From Chlamydiales bacterium (GTDB taxonomy: Bacteria; Chlamydiota; Chlamydiia; Chlamydiales; JBDQID01), in the NCBI GenBank assembly GCA_047611865.1, contig JBLFWS010000025.1, positions 1 through 30,035 of the forward strand: a DNA stretch of 30,035 nucleotides, written 5' to 3'. This document shows positions 3,536 to 29,990 of this stretch, piece by piece (position 1 is the stretch's first letter; each line of letters starts with the position of its first letter). Made by a program: the position numbers and the translations under genes. The notes beneath the pieces are model-generated. The model saw only the letters and a list, made by a program, of their open reading frames with translations. It was not told the DNA's origin and made no database searches.

Positions 3536-5074
3536 ATGTTTAAAGTGATGCCTGACAACACAAAAAAAACATTTAGTAGAATCCGCGAGATTATATGGCC
3601 TATTCACAGCTACGAGCTGAAGAAGGTGATTCCGCTTCTACTTATCAAATTATTCGTCACTCTCACCTACACCATCCTTAAAGATGCTAAAGACACCCTC
3701 ATAGTCACATCTGTTGGCTCAGGAGCCGAAGCTATCCCCATTTTAAAGGGGTGGGTAGTGCTCCCTCTGGCCTTTCTTGCAATGATCGCCTACTCCAAGC
3801 TAAGTAACGCCCTAAGTCGCACATCCCTCTTCTATACGACGATTCTCGCGTTTATGGCCTTTTTCTTTTTCTACGGCTTCATACTCTACCCCTTAAAAGA
3901 CGTCCTTTGCCCCCACGAATCTGCCGACTGGTTAATTTCCGTCCTCGGAGAGGAACGCTCCCATTGGGTAGCCATATACCGCTATTGGATGAACTCCTTA
4001 TTTTTCGTCGCTGCTGAGCTCTGGGGCGGTATGGCCATCGGATTACTCTTCTGGGGCTTTGCCAACCAAGTCTGCCGCATAGACGAAGCTAAACGTTTTT
4101 ATGCTATATACTCCGCCGCCGGAGACATCGGCCTGATCTTAGCAGGTCGCATCACCTGGTATTTTGCCAGCTCCTTCTCCGGAATGGACTTCGGGTACAC
4201 CCTAAAGTACCTCATCACCAGCGTCCTCATCTGCGGAGTAGCCATTATTGCCGCCTATTGGTGGTTTAACCGCTATGTCATGCCCGACGCCCCAATAGAA
4301 GAAGCAAAAGTCAAAAAAATCAAGCCCAAGCTTTCTCTCAAAGAAAGCCTCGGATACCTGGCCTCCTCCCCTTACCTGCTCTCTATTGCCGTTATGGTAA
4401 TAGCCTACGGACTAGCCTTTAACCTCGTAGAAGTTACCTGGAAAGCCACACTGAAATTGCAATACCCCAACCCTAACGACTACCAGTCTTTTATGGGGAC
4501 CATCTCCACCATCTTAGGCTTCGTCTCCCTGCTAACCACACTCTTTATCGGTGGCTTTGTCACCCGTAAGTTCGGATGGCTCTTTAGCGCAAGAGTGACC
4601 CCCATACTTGTTGGAATAACCGCTATAGGCTTCCTCTGTATATACCTCAGCAAAGATGCCCTCTCCGGCGTCCTCGCCCTCGTAGGCATAACACCCATCA
4701 TGCTAGTCGTTATCATCGGCTCAGTACAGAACGTCGTAGGAAAGACACTGAAATACTCTTTCTTTGACCCCACCAAGGAAATGGCCTTCATACCCCTAGA
4801 CGAAGAATGTAAAGTCAAAGGAAAAGCCGCAATAGACGTAGTAGCCTCTCGCTTTGGGAAATCAGGCTCCTCATGGATACAGATTATCCTCATAGAATTC
4901 GTTGGAGGCGGTAGCGTCCTAGGCATCACACACTGGCTCGCCCCCTTCATAATAGTCACCATAGCCATGTGGCTCTACGCCGTTAACACCGTCGGAAAAG
5001 AATTCGCCATACTCACCAACGAAGAAATAAAACCCTCCGCAGAAAACCCCACCCCCAAAGAAGCCTCAGCCTAG
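3536..5074 (+). CDS. ntt: Nucleotide transport protein, TLC/NTT (ATP/ADP translocase) family; substrate not assignable from sequence alone
   Basis: Multi-pass membrane protein with IWPIHSYELKK, YTILKDAKDTL, AELWG, LLFWGFANQ, KYSFFDPTKEMAFIPLD and KGKAAIDVVASRFGKSG motifs. Confidence 0.93.
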   Translation: MFKVMPDNTKKTFSRIREIIWPIHSYELKKVIPLLLIKLFVTLTYTILKDAKDTLIVTSVGSGAEAIPILKGWVVLPLAFLAMIAYSKLSNALSRTSLFYTTILAFMAFFFFYGFILYPLKDVLCPHESADWLISVLGEERSHWVAIYRYWMNSLFFVAAELWGGMAIGLLFWGFANQVCRIDEAKRFYAIYSAAGDIGLILAGRITWYFASSFSGMDFGYTLKYLITSVLICGVAIIAAYWWFNRYVMPDAPIEEAKVKKIKPKLSLKESLGYLASSPYLLSIAVMVIAYGLAFNLVEVTWKATLKLQYPNPNDYQSFMGTISTILGFVSLLTTLFIGGFVTRKFGWLFSARVTPILVGITAIGFLCIYLSKDALSGVLALVGITPIMLVVIIGSVQNVVGKTLKYSFFDPTKEMAFIPLDEECKVKGKAAIDVVASRFGKSGSSWIQIILIEFVGGGSVLGITHWLAPFIIVTIAMWLYAVNTVGKEFAILTNEEIKPSAENPTPKEASA

Positions 5075-5113
5075 GTCCAGGCCCAGGCTTCCATTACCAC
5101 ACGTCGTATATAA

Positions 5114-5313
5114 ATGGGGTTCCACCCCAAACCCCGCCAAAGGACCAGTCCTCTGGACTCCTCATTAGCTGTCGTAGTGTTCGAAGCGTTGTTATCATTT
5201 GCATAGTCATTTTTCTGCACTCGATGAACTTCGTTCCTCTCGCAAGGCAGTCAATATCATTGCTCCAATGACACTGAACAGTTCCACCTCCGGTGGTGTG
5301 ACGATACCTGTCA
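5114..5313 (-). repeat. ~200-bp structured non-coding repeat, copy A
   Basis: Reverse complement runs TGACAGGTATCGTCA...GGGGTGGAACCCCAT and aligns end to end with 5478-5676 and 15869-16065. Confidence 0.9.
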
Positions 5314-5477
5314 GAATATGTATGAATGCTAAAAACCAAAACTAAGATACCCCCCCCCTACTCTCCTAAAGGAAGGCCTTCGGTGGAGTCATGATACCAG
5401 TCGGAATACGCATAAAGGCAAAAAAAGTTAGAACGCTACTTTTAAGCAGTACTTGATCTATGTATAGGTTCGTATTA

Positions 5478-5676
5478 TGACAGGTATCGTCACACCACCG
5501 GAGGTGGAACTATTCAGTGTCATTGGAACAATGATATTGACTGCCTTGCGAGAGGAACGAAGTTCATCGAGTGCAGAGAAAAAATAGGCTCAAAATAACG
5601 ATGCTTCGAGCACTACGACAGCTAATGGGGAGTCCAGAGGACTGGTACTTTGGTGGGGTTTGGGGCGAAGCCCCAT
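5478..5676 (+). repeat. ~200-bp structured non-coding repeat, copy B (inverted relative to A)
   Basis: TGACAGGTATCGTCACACCACCGGAGGTGG...GGGGCGAAGCCCCAT; several hairpins. Confidence 0.9.
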
Positions 5677-5772
5677 AAAGGATGTCTAAGCTAAAAACTC
5701 TTCGAGCACTACGACTGCTAATGGGGAGTCCAGAGGACTGGTCCTTGGCCGGGGTTTGGGGTGGAGCCCCAT
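5677..5772 (+). repeat. Partial tandem copy C (3' half of the element)
   Basis: CTTCGAGCACTACGAC...GGGGTGGAGCCCCAT repeated directly after copy B; its AT-rich leader resembles the variable segment of copy D. Confidence 0.85.
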
Positions 5773-5796
5773 AGACGTTAAATAAATACGCTTCTG

Positions 5797-7236
5797 CTAC
5801 TTAAAAAATAGTTTGAGTTGGGCTTTGGCTTGATTTTCGAACATCTCCATTCCGCTTATGACTTGACATCCGGCTAATTTGGCCTCTCTGAGGAGTTTTG
5901 TTTCTTTGGGGTTTGATATGATATCCATTACGAGGGTGCTGTGGTGGAGGTCTGCTGCTTCTACTGGGGTTTCTTTGATCTTTGGTGACATCCCTAGGGA
6001 GGTGCTGTTTATCAGGATGTCTACTCCCTCTCGTAGTATCTCCTTTTGCTGCTGTATGGTGGCATGGCGACAGTCGTATTTTTCTGCGAGGGCTTTTGCT
6101 TTGTTTTGATCCCTGTTTAGTATGCAGAGCTCTGCTCCTCTGCTGACAGCTTCTTCTGCTATTGCTTTTGCTGCACCACCGGCACCTATTAGGAGCATCT
6201 TCTTTCCTGCTACTGATAGTCTCTCCTCTATGGCATCCAAAGCGCCCACGCCATCGGTGTTGTAGCCATAGAGTTTTCCCTCCCGGAAACGTATCGTGTT
6301 CACAGCTCCGATGCTTAGTGCTCTGTGGTCTATAAAGTCCAGGTAGGGCATCACGGATTCTTTCAGTGGCATCGTTACGCTGAGACCTTGAAAAGGGAAT
6401 TTTCTTGCGTATTCGAAAAATTCTCCGAGCTCGCCAGCGGTAACGTGTATCTTTTCATATACTGCATTAAGATGTTGATTTTGGAAGGCTCTGTTATGAA
6501 AGATATGCCCGACACTTTTGTCTACGGGACTGCCTATTAAGGCGCACAGTTTGCTGTGAACATTTAATTTACGATATCGATAGATCTCTAAAAGGTCCTT
6601 TAAGCGACTTTGATTGGCTACACTCATCGTGTGCTCGTCTAGGCTTGCAAAGGTCCAGGCATTTCCAAAGAGGGGGGATAATGTCCGTGTGGGCAGGCCT
6701 TTCTCTCCCATACAAAGGCCGATGACTCTCTGACCCTCTTTTGCTTTGCTTTTCACTAATTGCATCATACGTAAGGTATCAAGGGAGCTTCTGGCAGAAC
6801 AGGCCATCTTGATAATGTCGGGTCCTTTAGCCTTTATTTCCTCGTAGATAGCTTCCAAGTCGGAGGGTGTCTCATCGAAATTGTGGTAGGAATAAACGAC
6901 TTTCGTACGTCGGCTTTTTTCCTTTAGGACAGCTTTTTGAACATCTTCCGCATCAGCTTCAATATCGAGGTAGTCGGGAGAAAAAGAAAGAAGCCTCTGA
7001 AAAAGCCTCACTCTCTCGACGCCTACACCCTCATACTTCCCACCATGGGAAATATGACGCATCGTTAAGACCAGGGGCACAGGGCCCCCTTCTACAAGCC
7101 TCAGCATTTCTTCAAAATTACTTTGGTCGATGAGGTCCAAACGAATTTCCGCAAGGTCTGCTGATCTCGTTGCCCTCTCCAACTGATCTCGCGCTAAGTC
7201 TATTGAGGGTCCGACTATGGGTACACAAATCATCAT
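5797..7236 (-). CDS. aroDE: Bifunctional type I 3-dehydroquinate dehydratase / shikimate dehydrogenase
   Basis: N-terminal AEIRLD, YSYHNFDETP, IIKMA; C-terminal GLSVTMPLKE, GAVNTI, GYNTDG, IGAGGAAKA. Confidence 0.95.
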   Translation of the reverse strand: MMICVPIVGPSIDLARDQLERATRSADLAEIRLDLIDQSNFEEMLRLVEGGPVPLVLTMRHISHGGKYEGVGVERVRLFQRLLSFSPDYLDIEADAEDVQKAVLKEKSRRTKVVYSYHNFDETPSDLEAIYEEIKAKGPDIIKMACSARSSLDTLRMMQLVKSKAKEGQRVIGLCMGEKGLPTRTLSPLFGNAWTFASLDEHTMSVANQSRLKDLLEIYRYRKLNVHSKLCALIGSPVDKSVGHIFHNRAFQNQHLNAVYEKIHVTAGELGEFFEYARKFPFQGLSVTMPLKESVMPYLDFIDHRALSIGAVNTIRFREGKLYGYNTDGVGALDAIEERLSVAGKKMLLIGAGGAAKAIAEEAVSRGAELCILNRDQNKAKALAEKYDCRHATIQQQKEILREGVDILINSTSLGMSPKIKETPVEAADLHHSTLVMDIISNPKETKLLREAKLAGCQVISGMEMFENQAKAQLKLFFK

Positions 7237-7374: not shown

Positions 7375-7896
7375 ATGAGTTCTGATCTCAACAATTTAAC
7401 CTGCACAATATCAATGGAAATCATGAACAACCCTGTCAAACTGGGCTGCGACCACAGCTTCGGAAAAGAAGCTCTCAAGAAATGGTTTGCTGAAGGGAAA
7501 AATACCTGCCCACTAGACCAAGGTGTGGTAGATGAGGACGCTATTACCTATGACGATGAATTACGCAGCAAGGTTGAGGAGTATGTAAAAGAACATCCCG
7601 AAATCCTGGAAGAGGGAAAACTAAAAGCAGTCGATAAAGACCTCAGTAAAATAAAAGCTTCCCTGATCCATAGCCATGACTTAATTGCCAAGCAGGTCTT
7701 TGAAGCTCTCGAAAGAGATCATCAAGCGCGCGCTATAGGACGTTTAAATGAAGTAATCGTACGAAGGATCGCAGTCCAAAACGATATTAGGGCCAGAGAA
7801 GACCATGTCATGGATCAACGATGTGGCTGTTACGCCACCTGCTTTGCTATATTTATGGTAGCCTTAGTACTCTTGAGTAAAATTGAACAAGACTAG
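7375..7896 (+). CDS. U-box domain protein with C-terminal transmembrane helix (putative E3 ligase effector)
   Basis: LTCTISMEIMNNPVKLGCDHSFGKEALKKWF...TCP U-box pattern; hydrophobic tail CFAIFMVALVLL. Confidence 0.8.
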   Translation: MSSDLNNLTCTISMEIMNNPVKLGCDHSFGKEALKKWFAEGKNTCPLDQGVVDEDAITYDDELRSKVEEYVKEHPEILEEGKLKAVDKDLSKIKASLIHSHDLIAKQVFEALERDHQARAIGRLNEVIVRRIAVQNDIRAREDHVMDQRCGCYATCFAIFMVALVLLSKIEQD

Positions 7897-7911
7897 TATT
7901 TGGAGATTTTC

Positions 7912-8382
7912 ATGACTGCGAACAACACAAGCTACACTAGCAACTCTCTCTACTGTCCTATCACCCATGACATCATGAGCAATCCCATAAGGCTTGGTTG
8001 TGGCCATAACTTTGAAAAAGAAGCAATCGCCCACTGGTTCGATCTGGGACACAAGGATTGCCCCTGTGGGAGAAGAGAAGTTAACCCCGAAGAAATCACA
8101 TATAATGAAGAGCTGGCAATAAAAATTCACAAATACGTCACCCTACACCCCGAAATCATGGAAGGCGATGAATTACAAAGTACCGATCGGGACTTAAGCG
8201 TGGTCCAATTTGCCCTTCTATCCACAGAATCCTATGCCATTGATGTCGATGAAGACGAATTTTTCGCTGCTCACGACGCCTTTGAGCTAAGACCTCCCTC
8301 TTCTCTCTATGTAATAATACTATCTATTTGCTTTATTGCTATCTTCTTCTTATTCAGCACCAGAGAACGCCTTAACCGCTAA
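7912..8382 (+). CDS. U-box domain protein with C-terminal transmembrane helix, paralogue of 7375..7896
   Basis: LYCPITHDIMSNPIRLGCGHNFEKEAIAHWF...DCP; shared HPEI.E motif; tail LYVIILSICFIAIFFLF. ATG 7912 chosen because GGAG lies at 7902-7905. Confidence 0.8.
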   Translation: MTANNTSYTSNSLYCPITHDIMSNPIRLGCGHNFEKEAIAHWFDLGHKDCPCGRREVNPEEITYNEELAIKIHKYVTLHPEIMEGDELQSTDRDLSVVQFALLSTESYAIDVDEDEFFAAHDAFELRPPSSLYVIILSICFIAIFFLFSTRERLNR

Positions 8383-10554: not shown

Positions 10555-10588
10555 CCTAATACTTTCCTATCTACAATCTTTAAGTGCC

Positions 10589-10687
10589 GCACCTGCCGGT
10601 GCTCCATAATTGATATTTGATCCTTAAACCGGGCCTTGCTCGCAAGCTCGCTACGACCCGGCCTACATAATGGCGCGCCTCTGGCGC
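10589..10687 (-). repeat. GTAG-type REP-like palindrome flanked by two short hairpins
   Basis: Minus strand 10666-10628 reads GTAG-GCCGGGTC...GGCCCGGT; flanking GCACC-TGCC-GGTGC (10589-10602) and GCGCC-TCT-GGCGC (10675-10687). Confidence 0.5.
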
Positions 10688-10784
10688 TCAATCCATTTCT
10701 TCGACCCTCTCAACACATATAGATCGCCTATGCCGCTCTACTGGCCAAAGCAAAAGAATGTCTACAAGGAGATCGTACACTAAA

Positions 10785-14158: not shown

Positions 14159-14355
14159 ATGGCCCTCTACAAATAGAATTCGCTAGCAAGAGTTTTTCAA
14201 TAGCCCAAAAACCCTCACACTTTAGTGGTATATCAGATATTTGATATTTATCAAACTCTTGGATAAAACAGTCTGATATAGCTAAGGAATTCTACAGGGA
14301 GTCAAGACTTTAGAGCTAGAACAAAGAGAGACTGGGGAGGGCTAAAGAGAAGAGG

Positions 14356-14391
14356 AACGCGAAGTCAGCGAAGAAAGCGAAGGTCGCGAAG
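14356..14391 (+). repeat. Four tandem 9-bp units (NNNGCGAAG) in a purine-rich tract
   Basis: AACGCGAAG TCAGCGAAG AAAGCGAAG GTCGCGAAG. Confidence 0.7.
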
Positions 14392-14537
14392 GAAGATAAG
14401 AGGAGGGAAGAAGAGAGAAAAAAAGTTTACAAAATTTGTATTGATCAACCGTTTCATATTTTTTTCTATTAACATACTCTAGGAGTTCGTATAATTCCTA
14501 TGGTATGCATTCTAAGACACGTGACAAGGTATTAATA

Positions 14538-15242
14538 ATGGAATTCGATATATACTGCGACGAAAGTCAACCTGATCTTTTAGCTTCCCAACATCCACAA
14601 GCCCAATATTTGGTAATAGGAAGCTTATGGCTAAAATCCGAAAAAAGACAAAGTTACAAGGATGCTATTCATACACTTCGAAACAAACACAAAATTGGAG
14701 GTGAATTTAAATGGCAAAAAATCTCCCCCTCTCGTGAAAATTTCTATAATGAATTAATCCAATGGTTTGTTGCACAAGGTGATGAACTGCGATTTCGATG
14801 TATTGCAGTAGCAAACAATAAGGTGAACCTCCTCCAATACCATGACAACAATCAAGAACTCGGATTTTATAAGTTTTATTACCAAATGCTTCACCACTGG
14901 ATAGCTGATTTTAACGAATACCATATTTTCTGCGATTACAAAACAAATCAAAGGCGCGATCGATTACACGTCCTCGAAAGATGCTTAGACAGCTCCAACC
15001 TATCTGCTAAAATAAGCTCCGTTCAGGCTACTCGATCAAGTGAATCTGTTCTTATTCAACTTACTGATGTATTAACCGGAATAGCATCAAGCAGCTTAAA
15101 CCAAACCTTAAAAATCGATAGCTCAAAGCATAAAACTGTATTAGAGTTAGAAAAGCTCCTCGGCAAAAAGGTTTCTCCTACTAGTCGAAACGAGTATAAA
15201 TTCAATGTCTTTCAAATCGACCTTAGTGGTGGATGGCAATGA
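14538..15242 (+). CDS. DUF3800-domain protein (predicted RNase H-like fold)
   Basis: N-terminal IYCDES and C-terminal SSESVLIQLTDVLTG (QxxD) motifs, EFKW. Start placed at ATG 14538 (AAGGT upstream); the ORF track starts at 14505. Confidence 0.85.
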   Translation: MEFDIYCDESQPDLLASQHPQAQYLVIGSLWLKSEKRQSYKDAIHTLRNKHKIGGEFKWQKISPSRENFYNELIQWFVAQGDELRFRCIAVANNKVNLLQYHDNNQELGFYKFYYQMLHHWIADFNEYHIFCDYKTNQRRDRLHVLERCLDSSNLSAKISSVQATRSSESVLIQLTDVLTGIASSSLNQTLKIDSSKHKTVLELEKLLGKKVSPTSRNEYKFNVFQIDLSGGWQ

Positions 15243-15679
15243 CCTACCCCACAATTCTGAAACTAAATTCTGAACAAGAGTACAAAGACCACTGGAAACA
15301 ACATTATTGTCAGGGCGAAATATGCACATTTGATGGCATTCAAGTTCGCTTCAAAATCAGAGACTTTGATCACGCCTTTTTTGAGTCTATTCACAAAAAA
15401 GACGACACTTTTTCCCTCAAACGTGCCGAAAGAATCGACTGGATTAAAGCGGCTCTCAAAGACCAAAGTAGCGAAAAATTTGTTGGGTATGACAGTACAA
15501 AAAAACGTTATGATCCCACAAGGCGAGTAACCATTGTAATGGGAAACTATGTCGTCATAATTGCATTAAAAAAAAATAATACAGCCAACTTTATAAGTGC
15601 TTTTGTTGCTGATACACCAGGAAGAAAAGGGCGACCATCGACAATTGAAAAAATTCGATCTGGCCAAAAATGGACATAA
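15239..15679 (+). CDS. Putative BECR/PBECR-like endoribonuclease, translationally coupled to DUF3800
   Basis: FDHAFF...FSLKRAERIDWIKAALKD...YVVII...FISAF pattern typical of Barnase/EndoU/ColicinD/RelE-like domains; ATGA overlap at 15239-15242. Family call by eye. Confidence 0.55.
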   Translation: MTYPTILKLNSEQEYKDHWKQHYCQGEICTFDGIQVRFKIRDFDHAFFESIHKKDDTFSLKRAERIDWIKAALKDQSSEKFVGYDSTKKRYDPTRRVTIVMGNYVVIIALKKNNTANFISAFVADTPGRKGRPSTIEKIRSGQKWT

Positions 15680-15712
15680 AAAAACCGCTGATTCGCCAGG
15701 CTGGCTCAGCGG
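15678..15712 (-). terminator. Intrinsic terminator oriented for a minus-strand transcript
   Basis: CCGCTGA (15685-15691) / TCAGCGG (15706-15712) stem; A7 on the plus strand left of the stem gives U7 on the minus strand. Confidence 0.7.
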
Positions 15713-15750
15713 GGTGCCTTTTAAGATTCCGCTACCACTGGTAGAGAACA
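15678..15750 (-). ncRNA. Candidate ~75-nt structured small RNA convergent on the DUF3800 operon
   Basis: Own promoter, hairpin UUCUCUACC-AGU-GGUAG(C)GGAA, then CCGCUGA/UCAGCGG stem with inner GCCA/UGGC and a U7 tail. Confidence 0.6.
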
Positions 15751-15808: not shown

Positions 15809-15868
15809 TCTCTTGTGAAATGATAATTTTGAAAAAGTCTCTAATAACTTATTAATCAAACCTTATTC

Positions 15869-16065
15869 TGACAGGTATCGTCACACCGCCGGAGGCGGAT
15901 CTAATCAGTGCCATCGGAACGATGGTGCTGACTGCTGGCGAGAGGAACGAAGTTCATCGAGTGCTGAGAAAAGAGATGTTTAAGCTAAATACGCTTCGAT
16001 TGCTCGGACACTAATGGGGTGTGCAGAGGGCTGGCCCTTTGCTGGGGTTTGGGGTGAACCCCCAT
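15869..16065 (+). repeat. ~200-bp structured non-coding repeat, copy D (diverged, compensatory changes)
   Basis: TGACAGGTATCGTCACACCGCCGGAGGCGG...GGGGTGAACCCCCAT; stems preserved by paired substitutions relative to A/B. Confidence 0.88.
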
Positions 16066-16079
16066 AAGAACTTTGGCCT

Positions 16080-26861: not shown

Positions 26862-28325
26862 ATGGGGAGTATCGACACTATTAACCTTAATCTCATGCTA
26901 GTGGTAACTTCTCTCGAAAAGCTAGAACTTCTAGAAGGCCGGGTCAATGATGTAGTTGTCAGTATGTTCTCAGAGAAATTCTCCCAACCAGAATTACTTG
27001 AAATGCACCAAGAAGTGCACTCTATGACGGATGAAATGAATACCATCCATGGTAAAGTTGCGGAAATCCTAGGTACTACAGACAGACTATTTTCTGAAAT
27101 TTTTCAATATAATGACATCGAAGTTGCTGAGGCTATTGAACTTGTGAAAAGCCACAGCCTTTTCGAAGATCTTTTGTCCGATAGCACTGGAAAAATGTAC
27201 TTTATTCAAGAAGTTCAGGAGATCAACCACCAATTTCATGTGGAATGCACCCTCAACAACCTCGAAAATGACTATAATCATATCATTTGCGAGCCATCTC
27301 AATATAAAAAGTTAAGCTCTCTATACTCTCTTAATCATCGAATTCCTTCATTAAACCATCAAACTCCCCCAGGATTCAGACAACGCATACTTGATCTTCA
27401 TGATCTAATCCAAAACAACATCTGTGCTCTCTCTCCTTCAGACTCTGAAAACCTGCAACAATTCGATGTGGAGACCCTGTCTAATGAAATTAAAGATATC
27501 GAGTTGACCCTTGTGGAGTGCAGAAACCTGCCTTGTGAAAACCCTCAAGGATTTATGGACGTTCGCCAAAGACTACAGGAATTACAAAGTGAACTGGAAG
27601 AATTCCATGGTATCATCTTATCTCAAAAAGGGACGAATAGTCAGGTGGCTATACATAAAATTCAAGACTATGCCTCAAACCTTCTTGAAGAAATCGAAAT
27701 ACTTTTACGGGAGAACCTAAAGGCTCTGCAAGTATGTGTGAAGCATTCCTTGCAGTCTATAGAAACTCCCAACAAGGGGGACTGCCTCTTCCTCTCTCTC
27801 CAACAGCAGGTAGAGGGATGCTCTCACGAAAAGTTTAGGGAGATTGCCGTCAAGTATTTGAAAGAACATAAAAACGACTACAAAAACGCCGTTTGCGACT
27901 CTATGATCAACGATATCGATCTACAATACACCTACAGCTGCTTCCTGAGATCCTTAGGTGAAGACATTATGGCCAAACGCTTCGGGTATCAAGAAGATGA
28001 TATACGAAATGCCGACAATAGATTTCTGACGGAGCTCGGTTTAAATCAGCTGAACGACGCCCTCGAAAAAGAACTGGGAACCTCCCCCGATAGTTTTGAC
28101 CGTTATTGTAAATGGATGAGTGAAAGTCAACAATGGGGTAGCGACTTAGAAATAGATGCTATCAGTAAGAAACTTGATAGGCCTGTTATTCTTTTCAAAG
28201 GCGATGGTTCCATATTTGAAAAGATTGTCAATGGGAGGCTACCGGGCTACCCGCTCCTCCTTCACCATGTCAGCGACAAGCACTTTCAGCCCCTGGTCTC
28301 TCGGCCACAAGTGCGCAAAAGATAA
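26862..28325 (+). CDS. Helical/coiled-coil protein with C-terminal OTU deubiquitinase domain (putative effector)
   Basis: PNKGDCLFLSL (Cys308), WGSDLEIDAISKKL, HHVSDKHFQPL (His474): Cys-box, WG..E helix and His-box of OTU proteases. Confidence 0.82.
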   Translation: MGSIDTINLNLMLVVTSLEKLELLEGRVNDVVVSMFSEKFSQPELLEMHQEVHSMTDEMNTIHGKVAEILGTTDRLFSEIFQYNDIEVAEAIELVKSHSLFEDLLSDSTGKMYFIQEVQEINHQFHVECTLNNLENDYNHIICEPSQYKKLSSLYSLNHRIPSLNHQTPPGFRQRILDLHDLIQNNICALSPSDSENLQQFDVETLSNEIKDIELTLVECRNLPCENPQGFMDVRQRLQELQSELEEFHGIILSQKGTNSQVAIHKIQDYASNLLEEIEILLRENLKALQVCVKHSLQSIETPNKGDCLFLSLQQQVEGCSHEKFREIAVKYLKEHKNDYKNAVCDSMINDIDLQYTYSCFLRSLGEDIMAKRFGYQEDDIRNADNRFLTELGLNQLNDALEKELGTSPDSFDRYCKWMSESQQWGSDLEIDAISKKLDRPVILFKGDGSIFEKIVNGRLPGYPLLLHHVSDKHFQPLVSRPQVRKR

Positions 28326-28355
28326 CCTCCACTTAGATAGAAAAAGGAGTACAGC

Positions 28356-29990
28356 ATGAGTGATGACCATTCCAAAGACAACCCCACTATCATTGAATTT
28401 CCCAAGGAGGACACTGATCTTAAACTAAGTACTATTTCACAGATGTTCGAGGATAAATTTCGGATACTTGAAGAATTTGAATTAGAACTTCAGCACCTCA
28501 CTACAGAAATCGTAGAAGAAGAAGGTGACAGCGAGCACTTAAGAAAAGACCTGGACTACATTCTCGAACGAATCAAAGTCACCCGTATGCTCCACATCAA
28601 ACTTCAGGGAGCGGTCTCTGACTTGCAGCAAACGTTTATTCATTCTTTAAGTGAGGGCACACTATACCCAGAGGAATCACAACGTGTCACCTGTGATTTA
28701 GCAGAGCTGGACAAAGCTTGTAAGATCCTCGACAGCCATATCAAGAAAATTAATGACATCCACAACCTCATCCAATATCTGGAGCATGATTTTAGGATCT
28801 CGGAAATATCACAGAAAATTGATACGGACTGTAATCCTCAGCAAACCTTAGCGGAGCTCCACCAGCTCCAGGAAGAGATACAATTTGATGAAGACTGGGA
28901 TCACTCCGATGATAACATGCTCTTTTTAAAGGAGATTCAACATCAGGTCGGTCGCGCAGAAGAACAAATCCGCGGTGAAAGCCTTGATGATCTGATAAAA
29001 GAAACTACCGAGATCTTAAATAATACCCTGACGGAGGAGCATCCCCCATCAGAAAAAATTATAACCCTTCAAAGTCTCTTAGAAGGCTTGGATCTCATAG
29101 AAGAATACTCTTTTAATGACGACTCTTTCCCTCTTAGAAAGCTTCCTATGTACGACAATATGATGAAACAAGCTCAAAGCCTTTATGCTGATATTGAAGA
29201 ATCTATCAACCAGATCTCTAATCAACTGGACCCTCTTGCCGATACCTTGCCGGGCGTAAAAGGAATAATGGATAATGCCGATGATATCCTTGATGACATC
29301 GTCTATGATTTAGAAGTAGGTGAGGATCTCGACATCCAATCCTTCATTGTTTCAAAATACCTTCTTGAAGAGCAGGAAGAGTCTATCAATACTGTCCTGG
29401 AAAAAATGTTCCAATTCACCGGAATTGAAGACCCCGTTCAATACTCTCATTTCCAGGTGGCTCTCACTCGGGCACAAAACATTCGCTCACAGATATACAT
29501 GCAGATGGAGACAACCCAGCACAGCTTTGCAGAGTTTATAAAATCTCAGTACCTCAGAAACAAAGACATCCTCCCTGACAGTGACAGCTTGTACCGCGCC
29601 ACTGCCGAAGCTCTTGACGGAGTACCATGGGAATATCGGGATGCTCTAGAAAAACACCTGCGCGAGCACAATGAAGATGCGACCTACCTTCTTGCTTTAC
29701 AGACTGCCTTAGAGTTTAAAGAGGACAAAACAGGATCTTTTAATATCAACTCTTATGCTGATCTTATGGAATACAACGTGCCCCGTTCTGGTAACAGTCT
29801 AGAAGTTCTAGCTCTGAGTGATTTCCTCAATAAGCCTATCTTTGTCTTCCAGGATTCCTACCATAGCAAAGAGCATTGGGAAGTCTTCCTCTCTCTCAAC
29901 GACCTTTTGATCGTCGATGAAGACATAGAGCCCGTCCTCCTTTTCTATAACGAAGAGGGCTTCTACGAAAACCTTCTGCCTAACGAATAA
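28356..29990 (+). CDS. Acidic helical protein with degenerate, probably inactive C-terminal OTU domain
   Basis: LPDSDSLYRA (Ser411 at the Cys site), GNSLEVLALSDFLNKPIFVF, LFYNEEGFYENL (Phe536 at the His site). Confidence 0.7.
   Translation: MSDDHSKDNPTIIEFPKEDTDLKLSTISQMFEDKFRILEEFELELQHLTTEIVEEEGDSEHLRKDLDYILERIKVTRMLHIKLQGAVSDLQQTFIHSLSEGTLYPEESQRVTCDLAELDKACKILDSHIKKINDIHNLIQYLEHDFRISEISQKIDTDCNPQQTLAELHQLQEEIQFDEDWDHSDDNMLFLKEIQHQVGRAEEQIRGESLDDLIKETTEILNNTLTEEHPPSEKIITLQSLLEGLDLIEEYSFNDDSFPLRKLPMYDNMMKQAQSLYADIEESINQISNQLDPLADTLPGVKGIMDNADDILDDIVYDLEVGEDLDIQSFIVSKYLLEEQEESINTVLEKMFQFTGIEDPVQYSHFQVALTRAQNIRSQIYMQMETTQHSFAEFIKSQYLRNKDILPDSDSLYRATAEALDGVPWEYRDALEKHLREHNEDATYLLALQTALEFKEDKTGSFNINSYADLMEYNVPRSGNSLEVLALSDFLNKPIFVFQDSYHSKEHWEVFLSLNDLLIVDEDIEPVLLFYNEEGFYENLLPNE

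Follow-up and report, generated by a model that had tools for sequence, protein, structure and literature searches.

The DNA analyzed here is a 30,035-nt stretch (the window) that constitutes contig C25 of the genome of an uncultured Chlamydiales bacterium (G000; 3.59 Mb, 272 contigs, 95.5% complete). Genes were called as open reading frames (ORFs) of at least 100 codons, and those in the window include a TLC translocase, a DUF5407 protein, and U-box and OTU proteins, a content that points to Chlamydiales. Our subject is a repeated, hairpin-forming element of about 210 nt that is positioned just behind gene ends, and a trail of altered synonymous-site composition that leaves the 3' end of the element and enters the neighboring gene. 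On the element strand the trail is an excess of G and T at third codon positions, which appears in a facing gene as codons ending in A or C. Two copies of the element lie back-to-back between ntt and aroDE, and a third lies alone behind a gene that an earlier note on this DNA, made from the sequence alone, had named yggS. The layout is as follows.

3536..5074, + strand: ntt (TLC ATP/ADP translocase), with a trail in its 3' part
5110..5324, - strand: element copy A, about 215 nt, with 36 nt between its 3' end and the stop codon of ntt
5115..5135, - strand: terminal unit of copy A ("GGGGT + triloop hairpin")
5325..5467, no strand: spacer separating the back-to-back copies A and B
5468..5679, + strand: element copy B, a 5' body of covarying hairpins followed by a 3' module
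5555..5565, + strand: C(GAA)G DNA mini-hairpin in the 5' body of copy B
5655..5675, + strand: terminal unit of copy B
5677..5778, + strand: extra 3' module in tandem after copy B, with a terminal unit at 5751-5771 and 18 nt to the aroDE stop codon
5797..7236, - strand: aroDE fusion, with a mirror-image trail in its 3' part
15861..16070, + strand: single element copy C, with a terminal unit at 16044-16064 and 9 nt to the yggS stop codon
16080..16760, - strand: yggS-type gene (Ala_racemase_N), which carries a trail

The earlier note had reported, from hand counts, that A/C-ending codons accumulate at gene ends abutting the element. A recount returned its six values exactly: 46/47 in the last and 26/47 in the first 50 codons of ntt, 39/47 and 26/47 in those of aroDE, 37/48 in the last 50 of yggS and 26/48 in the last 50 of floA. 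Against an expectation of 0.55, the binomial p is 2e-11 for the ntt end, 5e-5 for aroDE and 1e-3 for yggS. Read in 50-codon blocks from the stop codon, ntt has 46/47, 39/48 and 40/49 such codons, with 27/47 and 28/49 near its start; aroDE has 39/47, 39/49 and 34/49, reaching 19/48 towards its start; and yggS has 37/48, 40/47, 29/50 and 28/49.

The note had tied this bias to the element and its orientation on the strength of three gene ends, and the tie holds across the genome, where neither of the two outcomes named in the note as refuting it was seen. A profile built on 24 copies gives 42 matches, dispersed in G000, with 33 outer 3' ends, of which 29 were scorable (40 or more third positions lying within 400 nt). 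All 29 are positive over the local background, and their mean third-position G+T excess on the element strand is +0.197, compared with +0.009 ± 0.058 at 1,844 other gene ends. The A/C-ending fraction of the last 66 codons is 0.506 in 637 element-free convergent genes and 0.71-0.79 in 24 element-adjacent genes (Mann-Whitney p = 2e-15). In a ranking of 1,973 gene ends by their A/C-ending codons, an element adjoins 11 of the first 13; one of the remaining two lies behind a decayed hairpin, and the other 350 nt from an element end. An unbiased window scan places the start of 12 of its top 15 windows at most 130 nt from an element 3' end, with 2 more behind decayed hairpins. The tenth strongest local G+T excess (C53, 19399-19717) lies within a gene and has no element nearby.

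Orthologues allow the same gene to be compared with and without the module. The aroDE tail has an excess of +0.26, compared with +0.02 ± 0.05 in module-free orthologues (n = 23, one frameshifted row of 24 having been dropped), and the yggS tail +0.21, compared with -0.01 ± 0.09 (n = 18). Together with the gene-end controls, these values rule out chance, a generic 3'-end bias, and amino-acid or gene-specific effects as the source of the skew. The 5' side of 11 single copies has no skew (0.479, 0.499). No trail is found at 21 other intergenic repeat families of the genome or at tRNA and tmRNA ends (24 scorable of 38), which rules out a generic effect of repeats or of strong transcripts. An assembly artefact was rejected as well, because contigs of a public run (X2), possibly close to the source sample, differ from the window by 0 letters outside repeats. 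Two other repeat families are represented in the window: positions 10580-10690 belong to a second, palindromic family of ~110 nt (42 copies) that has no trail, and positions 14340-14416 to a purine-rich family with GCGAAG units (19 copies) that has no consistent trail.

The trail is confined to the 3' side of the module, on the element strand. Third-position G+T on this strand is 0.74 in the first 300 nt, 0.62 at 400-600 nt, 0.57 at 800-1,500 nt and 0.52-0.53 beyond, with decay constants of 656 ± 122 and 403 ± 58 nt. Fourfold sites in the first 100 nt have A 0.13, C 0.08, G 0.45 and T 0.35. The odds ratios at fourfold sites, derived from composition, are 4.5 for changes of the A→G type and 2.0 for the C→T type, and every codon box is affected. 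First codon positions are also shifted, and U is depleted in the facing mRNA. The changes have no strong sequence context, save for a C→T excess at CpG with small counts. The trail runs across gene boundaries in operons. It is present where the 5' neighbor is transcribed away from the element, so read-through from that neighbor is not required.

The note had further held that the bias follows the orientation of the element and not chromosome replication, and the larger sample bears this out. With replichore orientation inferred from the contig skew of the fragmented assembly, elements whose strand has a G/T-rich background show an excess of +0.19 (n = 16), and those with a G/T-poor background one of +0.21 (n = 13). 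Mirror-image trails flank the 5 back-to-back pairs that have two facing genes. Because the two orientations are equal and the pairs are mirror-imaged, one passing fork cannot explain the trail, and chromosomal replication skew was rejected as its cause. Back-to-back pairs bring no switch in the background skew beyond ~2 kb, so any initiation would be local. A model of paired ssi sites of the IncQ type was also rejected, since single copies carry the trail without a reverse skew upstream. At three places (C46 near 21093, C192 near 3660 and C101 near 130) the 3' module has been broken or has decayed through other repeats and the trail is kept; trails can therefore mark lost elements.

On the heavy strand of mitochondrial DNA the same two changes, A→G and C→T, become more frequent with single-stranded time (available text of PMC9561281). 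The composition would fit either deamination of an exposed strand or G·T-wobble errors in a new collinear strand of the same sequence, and cannot separate the two. In both readings the process begins at the module and proceeds 5'→3'.

The element is itself structured. Five of its hairpins covary, with both sides changed in 13 of 33 pairs, a count that is reached by 0 of 500 shuffles and is inflated by the kinship of the copies. A C(GNA)G triloop is present in 26 of 29 genomic copies of one 5'-body hairpin, and the loop of the terminal hairpin is GAA, GGA or AAA in all 29 counted. GNA triloops form the stable DNA mini-hairpin of the G4-phage origin and the ssiA priming sites (available text of PMC13037366), and the fold is therefore best read as single-stranded DNA (ssDNA) folded on the element strand. 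The 3' module, of ~55 nt, is sufficient for the trail: module-only copies match full copies (0.18, n = 5, and 0.19, n = 19, respectively). A four-G-run pattern, found in 19 of 33 copies, makes no difference to the excess (0.182 with and 0.200 without), which leaves a G-quadruplex requirement unsupported. In Rfam the element falls below the gathering threshold for every family. The triplet CTA (once CTG) is conserved 2-3 nt ahead of the first G run (columns 205-207 of alignment A2), with CTG at loci L247, L249 and L288 of the relative G009; we take these to be DnaG recognition triplets.

The full element was found in none of 60 relatives searched with BLAST, nor in viral contigs or two metagenome scans, and a plasmid search gave no match. 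With a covariance model, the 3' module was detected in 20 of 150 other genomes from the order. Flanks were fetched for 69 module matches from eight of the relatives (64 scorable, 50 positive). The trail recurs in five of these eight chlamydial genomes. The excess is largest in G009 (+0.26, 5/5 positive), G016 (+0.24, 8/10 positive, up to 119/127; genome 98% complete), G011 (+0.15, 7/9), G045 (+0.09, 5/7) and G143 (+0.09, 13/13); G139 has +0.04 (9/12). Mirror-image trails in G016 have 119/127 and 96/134. An exact pattern matches 99 stretches across many phyla, 80 of which were fetched; those from Selenomonadaceae have a positive skew in 24 of 29. The trail recurs weakly in the Selenomonad G061, where facing genes, after masking, have +0.054 ± 0.024 (n = 14) compared with +0.005 in the gene-end control. 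In the Selenomonadaceae G061, G062 and G063 the terminal unit occurs 156, 93 and 84 times, frequently as back-to-back copies with an AT-rich spacer between them.

A trail is found, with few exceptions, only in genes whose transcription runs towards the module, and it then lies on the template strand of the gene. In G000, 26 of 29 ends face a gene 3' end (expected 42%, p = 1.5e-7), with a median of 30 nt from hairpin to stop codon. The excess in facing cases is +0.213 in G000 (n = 26) and +0.137 in the relatives (n = 53), compared with +0.063 (n = 3) and -0.014 (n = 11) in same-direction cases, which are few and come in part from copies that are trail-free in both orientations (several, in G134). 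The restriction to facing genes may be mechanistic, or the same-direction copies may be young.

A close known likeness is RRS (Replication Risk Sequence) of E. coli. In the available portions of its descriptions (bioRxiv 10.1101/2023.10.01.560376 = PMC11194060; PMC10287960; PMC13308219), RRS is a 222-bp sequence in 2 copies flanking Ter, is specific to the lagging template, and gave no in vivo peak when inverted. Its ssDNA is strongest at the element and trails for 1-2 kb, with a gap of ~700 nt (PMC13308219). In the RRS model the gap reaches from the G4 to the Okazaki fragment before it, which by our reading of the geometry is 5' of the G4; one text (PMC13308219) says "downstream" and, in its available part, leaves the term undefined. 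Both RRS and the chlamydial element are intergenic multi-hairpin repeats of ~220 nt with a 3'-terminal GGGGT and a hairpin with a G-rich arm (the "G4" of RRS). The terminal 12-mer and closing arm of RRS are identical in G009, a Selenomonad and a microvirus, and G000 has the variant GGGGTTTGGGG. The bodies, however, have no significant alignment (scores 33 and 42.5, shuffle means 37 and 42). RRS forms one pair symmetric about dif, whereas here ~30 copies are dispersed (42 matches; dif is unlocated in this assembly), have their trail on the 3' side, occupy both replichores and face genes. The lagging-template orientation of RRS does not apply either, the 16 and 13 ends of the two orientations, as judged from contig skew, having equal excess.

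Other systems share single features. GRINS, in the available text of Nivina et al. (2021; PMC8256042), are duplicated regions of polyketide synthase genes (>80% identity, within a gene cluster) with correlated GC and TA skews over ~1 kb, strongest at third positions and of both signs on one strand; that text gives their cause as unknown and describes no cis trigger. In contrast, the trails reported here are single-copy, lie in unrelated genes and are anchored at a defined module. The GRINS skew threshold (>0.15 for the mean absolute skews of both GC and TA, across >500 bp) is passed by 12 of 30 element ends and by 176 of 1,600 random windows. The ssi/PAS origins (G4 phage origin, RSF1010 ssiA and phiX174 PAS; available text of PMC13037366 and PMC9865509) likewise carry C(GNA)G mini-hairpins on one strand. 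They differ from the element, which is chromosomal and multicopy, has no cognate primase or Rep that we could find, and has a putative priming role. One-directional decay over ~1.3 kb from a loop-forming start, with the exposed strand gaining A→G and C→T changes, recalls the mutational gradient of the Pol I footprint at the ColE1 origin (Allen et al., 2011; PMC3167613) and that of the mitochondrial heavy strand (PMC9561281), to the extent of the available texts; those, however, are productive replicon origins. We class the element as a variant of programmed-ssDNA elements and not as a member of RRS or GRINS. REP/BIME and REPIN sequences are dispersed palindromes behind stop codons, often back-to-back. 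They differ in their link to Y1 transposases, none of which adjoins a module in the 15 Y1 loci checked (five in G000 without a match, ten in relatives with one weak match). Nor did these loci yield a repeat-flanked HUH transposase of which the element could be a non-autonomous derivative, as in the RAYT, IS200/IS605 or IS91 families. A literature search, whose coverage left out most subscription journals, found no paper that describes a trail of skew tied to a dispersed repeat in bacteria. The suspicion voiced in the earlier note, that the system is undescribed, survives to that extent, but the terminal unit is common to RRS and ssDNA phages, which gives the system a known relative.

The terminal unit occurs in 63 viral stretches. 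The viral sample consisted of 24 short stretches and 2 phage records, with 56 of 79 ORFs sent to Pfam. It holds 7 microviruses, with the unit on the capsid-gene strand in 7/7, 4 CRESS-type stretches, and 3 stretches with an HUH Rep just downstream of the unit. A sister pattern matches >146 stretches. The 80 fetched comprise 75 distinct loci, mostly of inoviruses, and in 67 of these the pattern is on the majority coding strand; an inovirus Zot domain is found in 13 of 18 sampled ORFs, and the named matches of the pattern are Stenotrophomonas and Xanthomonas filamentous phages, where the motif is unannotated. The placement of the unit, alone, on the coding strand of ssDNA replicons is a second likeness to the ssi/PAS origins; we take this strand to be the virion strand. 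At L138, L145 and L171 the unit lies ~25 nt upstream of an HUH Rep gene, on contigs that also encode a terminase. At L132, L135, L156 and L161 a unit of the bacterial type lies in the intergenic region of ~2-kb CRESS-type genomes. The inovirus-like loci L373, L376, L393, L399, L419 and L435 have two units ~0.9-1 kb apart that point at each other.

The genes neighboring the elements are unrelated housekeeping and unknown genes. PriA, which is near-universal and is, with DnaG and RNA polymerase, a route of priming at ssi/PAS origins, is present in 5/5 genomes, and Y2_Tnp was found in 0/5 by a search whose positive control likewise gave no signal. Host enzymes are the likely actors at the module. 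The footprint of ssDNA type proposed in the note is upheld, being anchored at the element, polar and of A→G/C→T spectrum; the loading of a nickase, helicase or primase is not, as no element-linked enzyme was found.

From the composition analysis we lean, with modest confidence, towards a one-directional local displacement loop (a D- or R-loop) that opens at the 3' module. The module would act as an ssDNA signal for this opening. From there a new strand, collinear with the element, would extend 5'→3' and enter the facing gene at its end; it would be either DNA synthesized with strand displacement, starting at a nick or primer, or antisense RNA that is G-rich and untranslated. The element strand would be displaced over a few hundred to ~1,500 nt and would gather A→G and C→T changes, most of them near the module. 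Such a loop would be local and abortive, would use host enzymes, and would be independent of the direction of the chromosomal fork. The model draws on the observed side, strand, decay, spectrum and replichore independence of the trail, on the sufficiency of the 3' module and its DNA-type hairpins, and on recurrence across lineages; from these we infer ssDNA exposure as the cause, the opening of a loop at the module, and the nature of the primer. Within the model we place a DNA loop a little above an even chance and an R-loop a little below it. A DNA loop would fit the phage origin-like unit, and an R-loop would account for the need for a facing gene, because antisense RNA carries no ribosomes.

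Several observations weigh against a displacement loop. The module has no trail in G115 (+0.02, 1/2 positive), G134 (-0.04, 2/6), Clostridia (10/23) or mixed other taxa (9/15), and the flanks of the two RRS loci of E. coli MG1655 have no clear skew. Same-direction genes of the Selenomonad G061 equal their control (+0.029, n = 7, and +0.031), a trail there having been withdrawn once a generic 5'-end bias was controlled. A plain DNA loop leaves the 14 same-direction chlamydial cases (about 0 to +0.06) unexplained, and priming at the classical origins of complementary strands proceeds to the 5' side of the strand that folds, opposite to the trail. No sigma-70-type promoter was found in 5000-5900, and no conserved -35/-10 upstream of 27 copies. 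Nor was there a close relative for polarising substitutions: run X2 has no listed variants outside repeats, and three further runs give only patchy cover.

We nevertheless favor the displacement loop over four other explanations, which we rank below it in the order given here. RNA polymerase may stall at or open the module, whereupon a nick there in the sense strand is followed by resection, or stalled complexes are passed over by the replisome, and the template strand, which is the element strand, is left single-stranded into the gene 3' end. Such a gap would have the right side and strand, would be independent of replichore, and would agree with the prevalence of facing 3' ends, their short distance to the stop codon, and the larger excess in facing cases. 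The triloops and G·T pairs, however, mark the element (template) strand and not the sense strand as folded, and the contrast with same-direction cases draws on few copies, several trail-free in either orientation, for which young age may be the explanation; we consider this gap unlikely. In a block of the RRS type, the folded module would halt lagging-strand synthesis, and the gap would be deaminated or filled by an error-prone polymerase. The terminal unit is the "G4" of RRS, length and layout are similar, and RRS gaps average 698 nt in vitro (available text of PMC13308219), near the 656-nt decay. RRS is bound to the lagging template and its gap, as we read the model, lies 5' of the G4, whereas the trail lies 3' and is equal in both replichore orientations, and the four-G-run pattern is dispensable. 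We regard such a block as improbable.

The two remaining explanations involve the facing mRNA. Error-prone cDNA (G·U/G·T wobble) begun at the module on this mRNA could recombine back and recode the 3' end. This would require a facing gene, and the predicted sense-strand T→C and G→A changes and the decay from the 3' end are all seen. However, RVT_1 was found in 1/5 trail-positive relatives and is absent from G016, whose trail is among the strongest; in G000 the two RVT_1 matches have internal stops and no module nearby, so that no intact reverse transcriptase, as a DGR- or retron-like system would need, was found there with this one family, which distant reverse transcriptases could escape. We give this route only a slim chance. 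Selection for 3' ends that are A/C-rich and unstructured, or C-rich and Rho-loading, ahead of hairpins would agree with the restriction to facing genes and with modules right behind stop codons. Yet all codon boxes shift, U is depleted, first positions shift too, the decay is smooth for >1 kb across gene boundaries, and the trail persists behind the decayed hairpins at C46 and C192, all of which make selection on the mRNA very improbable.

The displacement loop can be extended to a broader picture, which we offer tentatively and regard as rather doubtful. Chromosomal "GGGGT-hairpin" modules would form a cross-phylum class, with the same unit as the intergenic hairpins of ssDNA phages and RRS. 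They would program a local displacement loop head-on into gene ends, as a bacterial counterpart of the mitochondrial D-loop that might serve as a swivel for the positive supercoils in front of RNA polymerase, would recode the last kilobase of their neighbors, and would supply the cis trigger that GRINS-type skews lack. According to PMC13308219, RRS and the pilE G4 of Neisseria are the only two elements described in bacteria as programming ssDNA gaps. In the present system a defined module of ~55 nt has been replicated naturally tens of times; the side, strand, range and spectrum of its trail are measured, and its sequence connects it to RRS and to phages with ssDNA. What was a compositional anomaly without an explanation can now be tested by transplanting the module, and genomes can be screened for such elements by their trail. 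Locally, the effect is large enough to disturb the signals of codon usage and phylogeny at the ends of genes.

The window has other features of note. Positions 14505-15750 hold a DUF3800 gene, an ORF of unknown function and a short structured-looking stretch (~15680-15750), which has no Rfam match even at E up to 1; DUF3800-associated RNA motifs exist. Tandem U-box genes (7375-8382) and tandem OTU-domain genes (26862-29990) encode eukaryote-like proteins of the ubiquitin system, typical of environmental chlamydiae.

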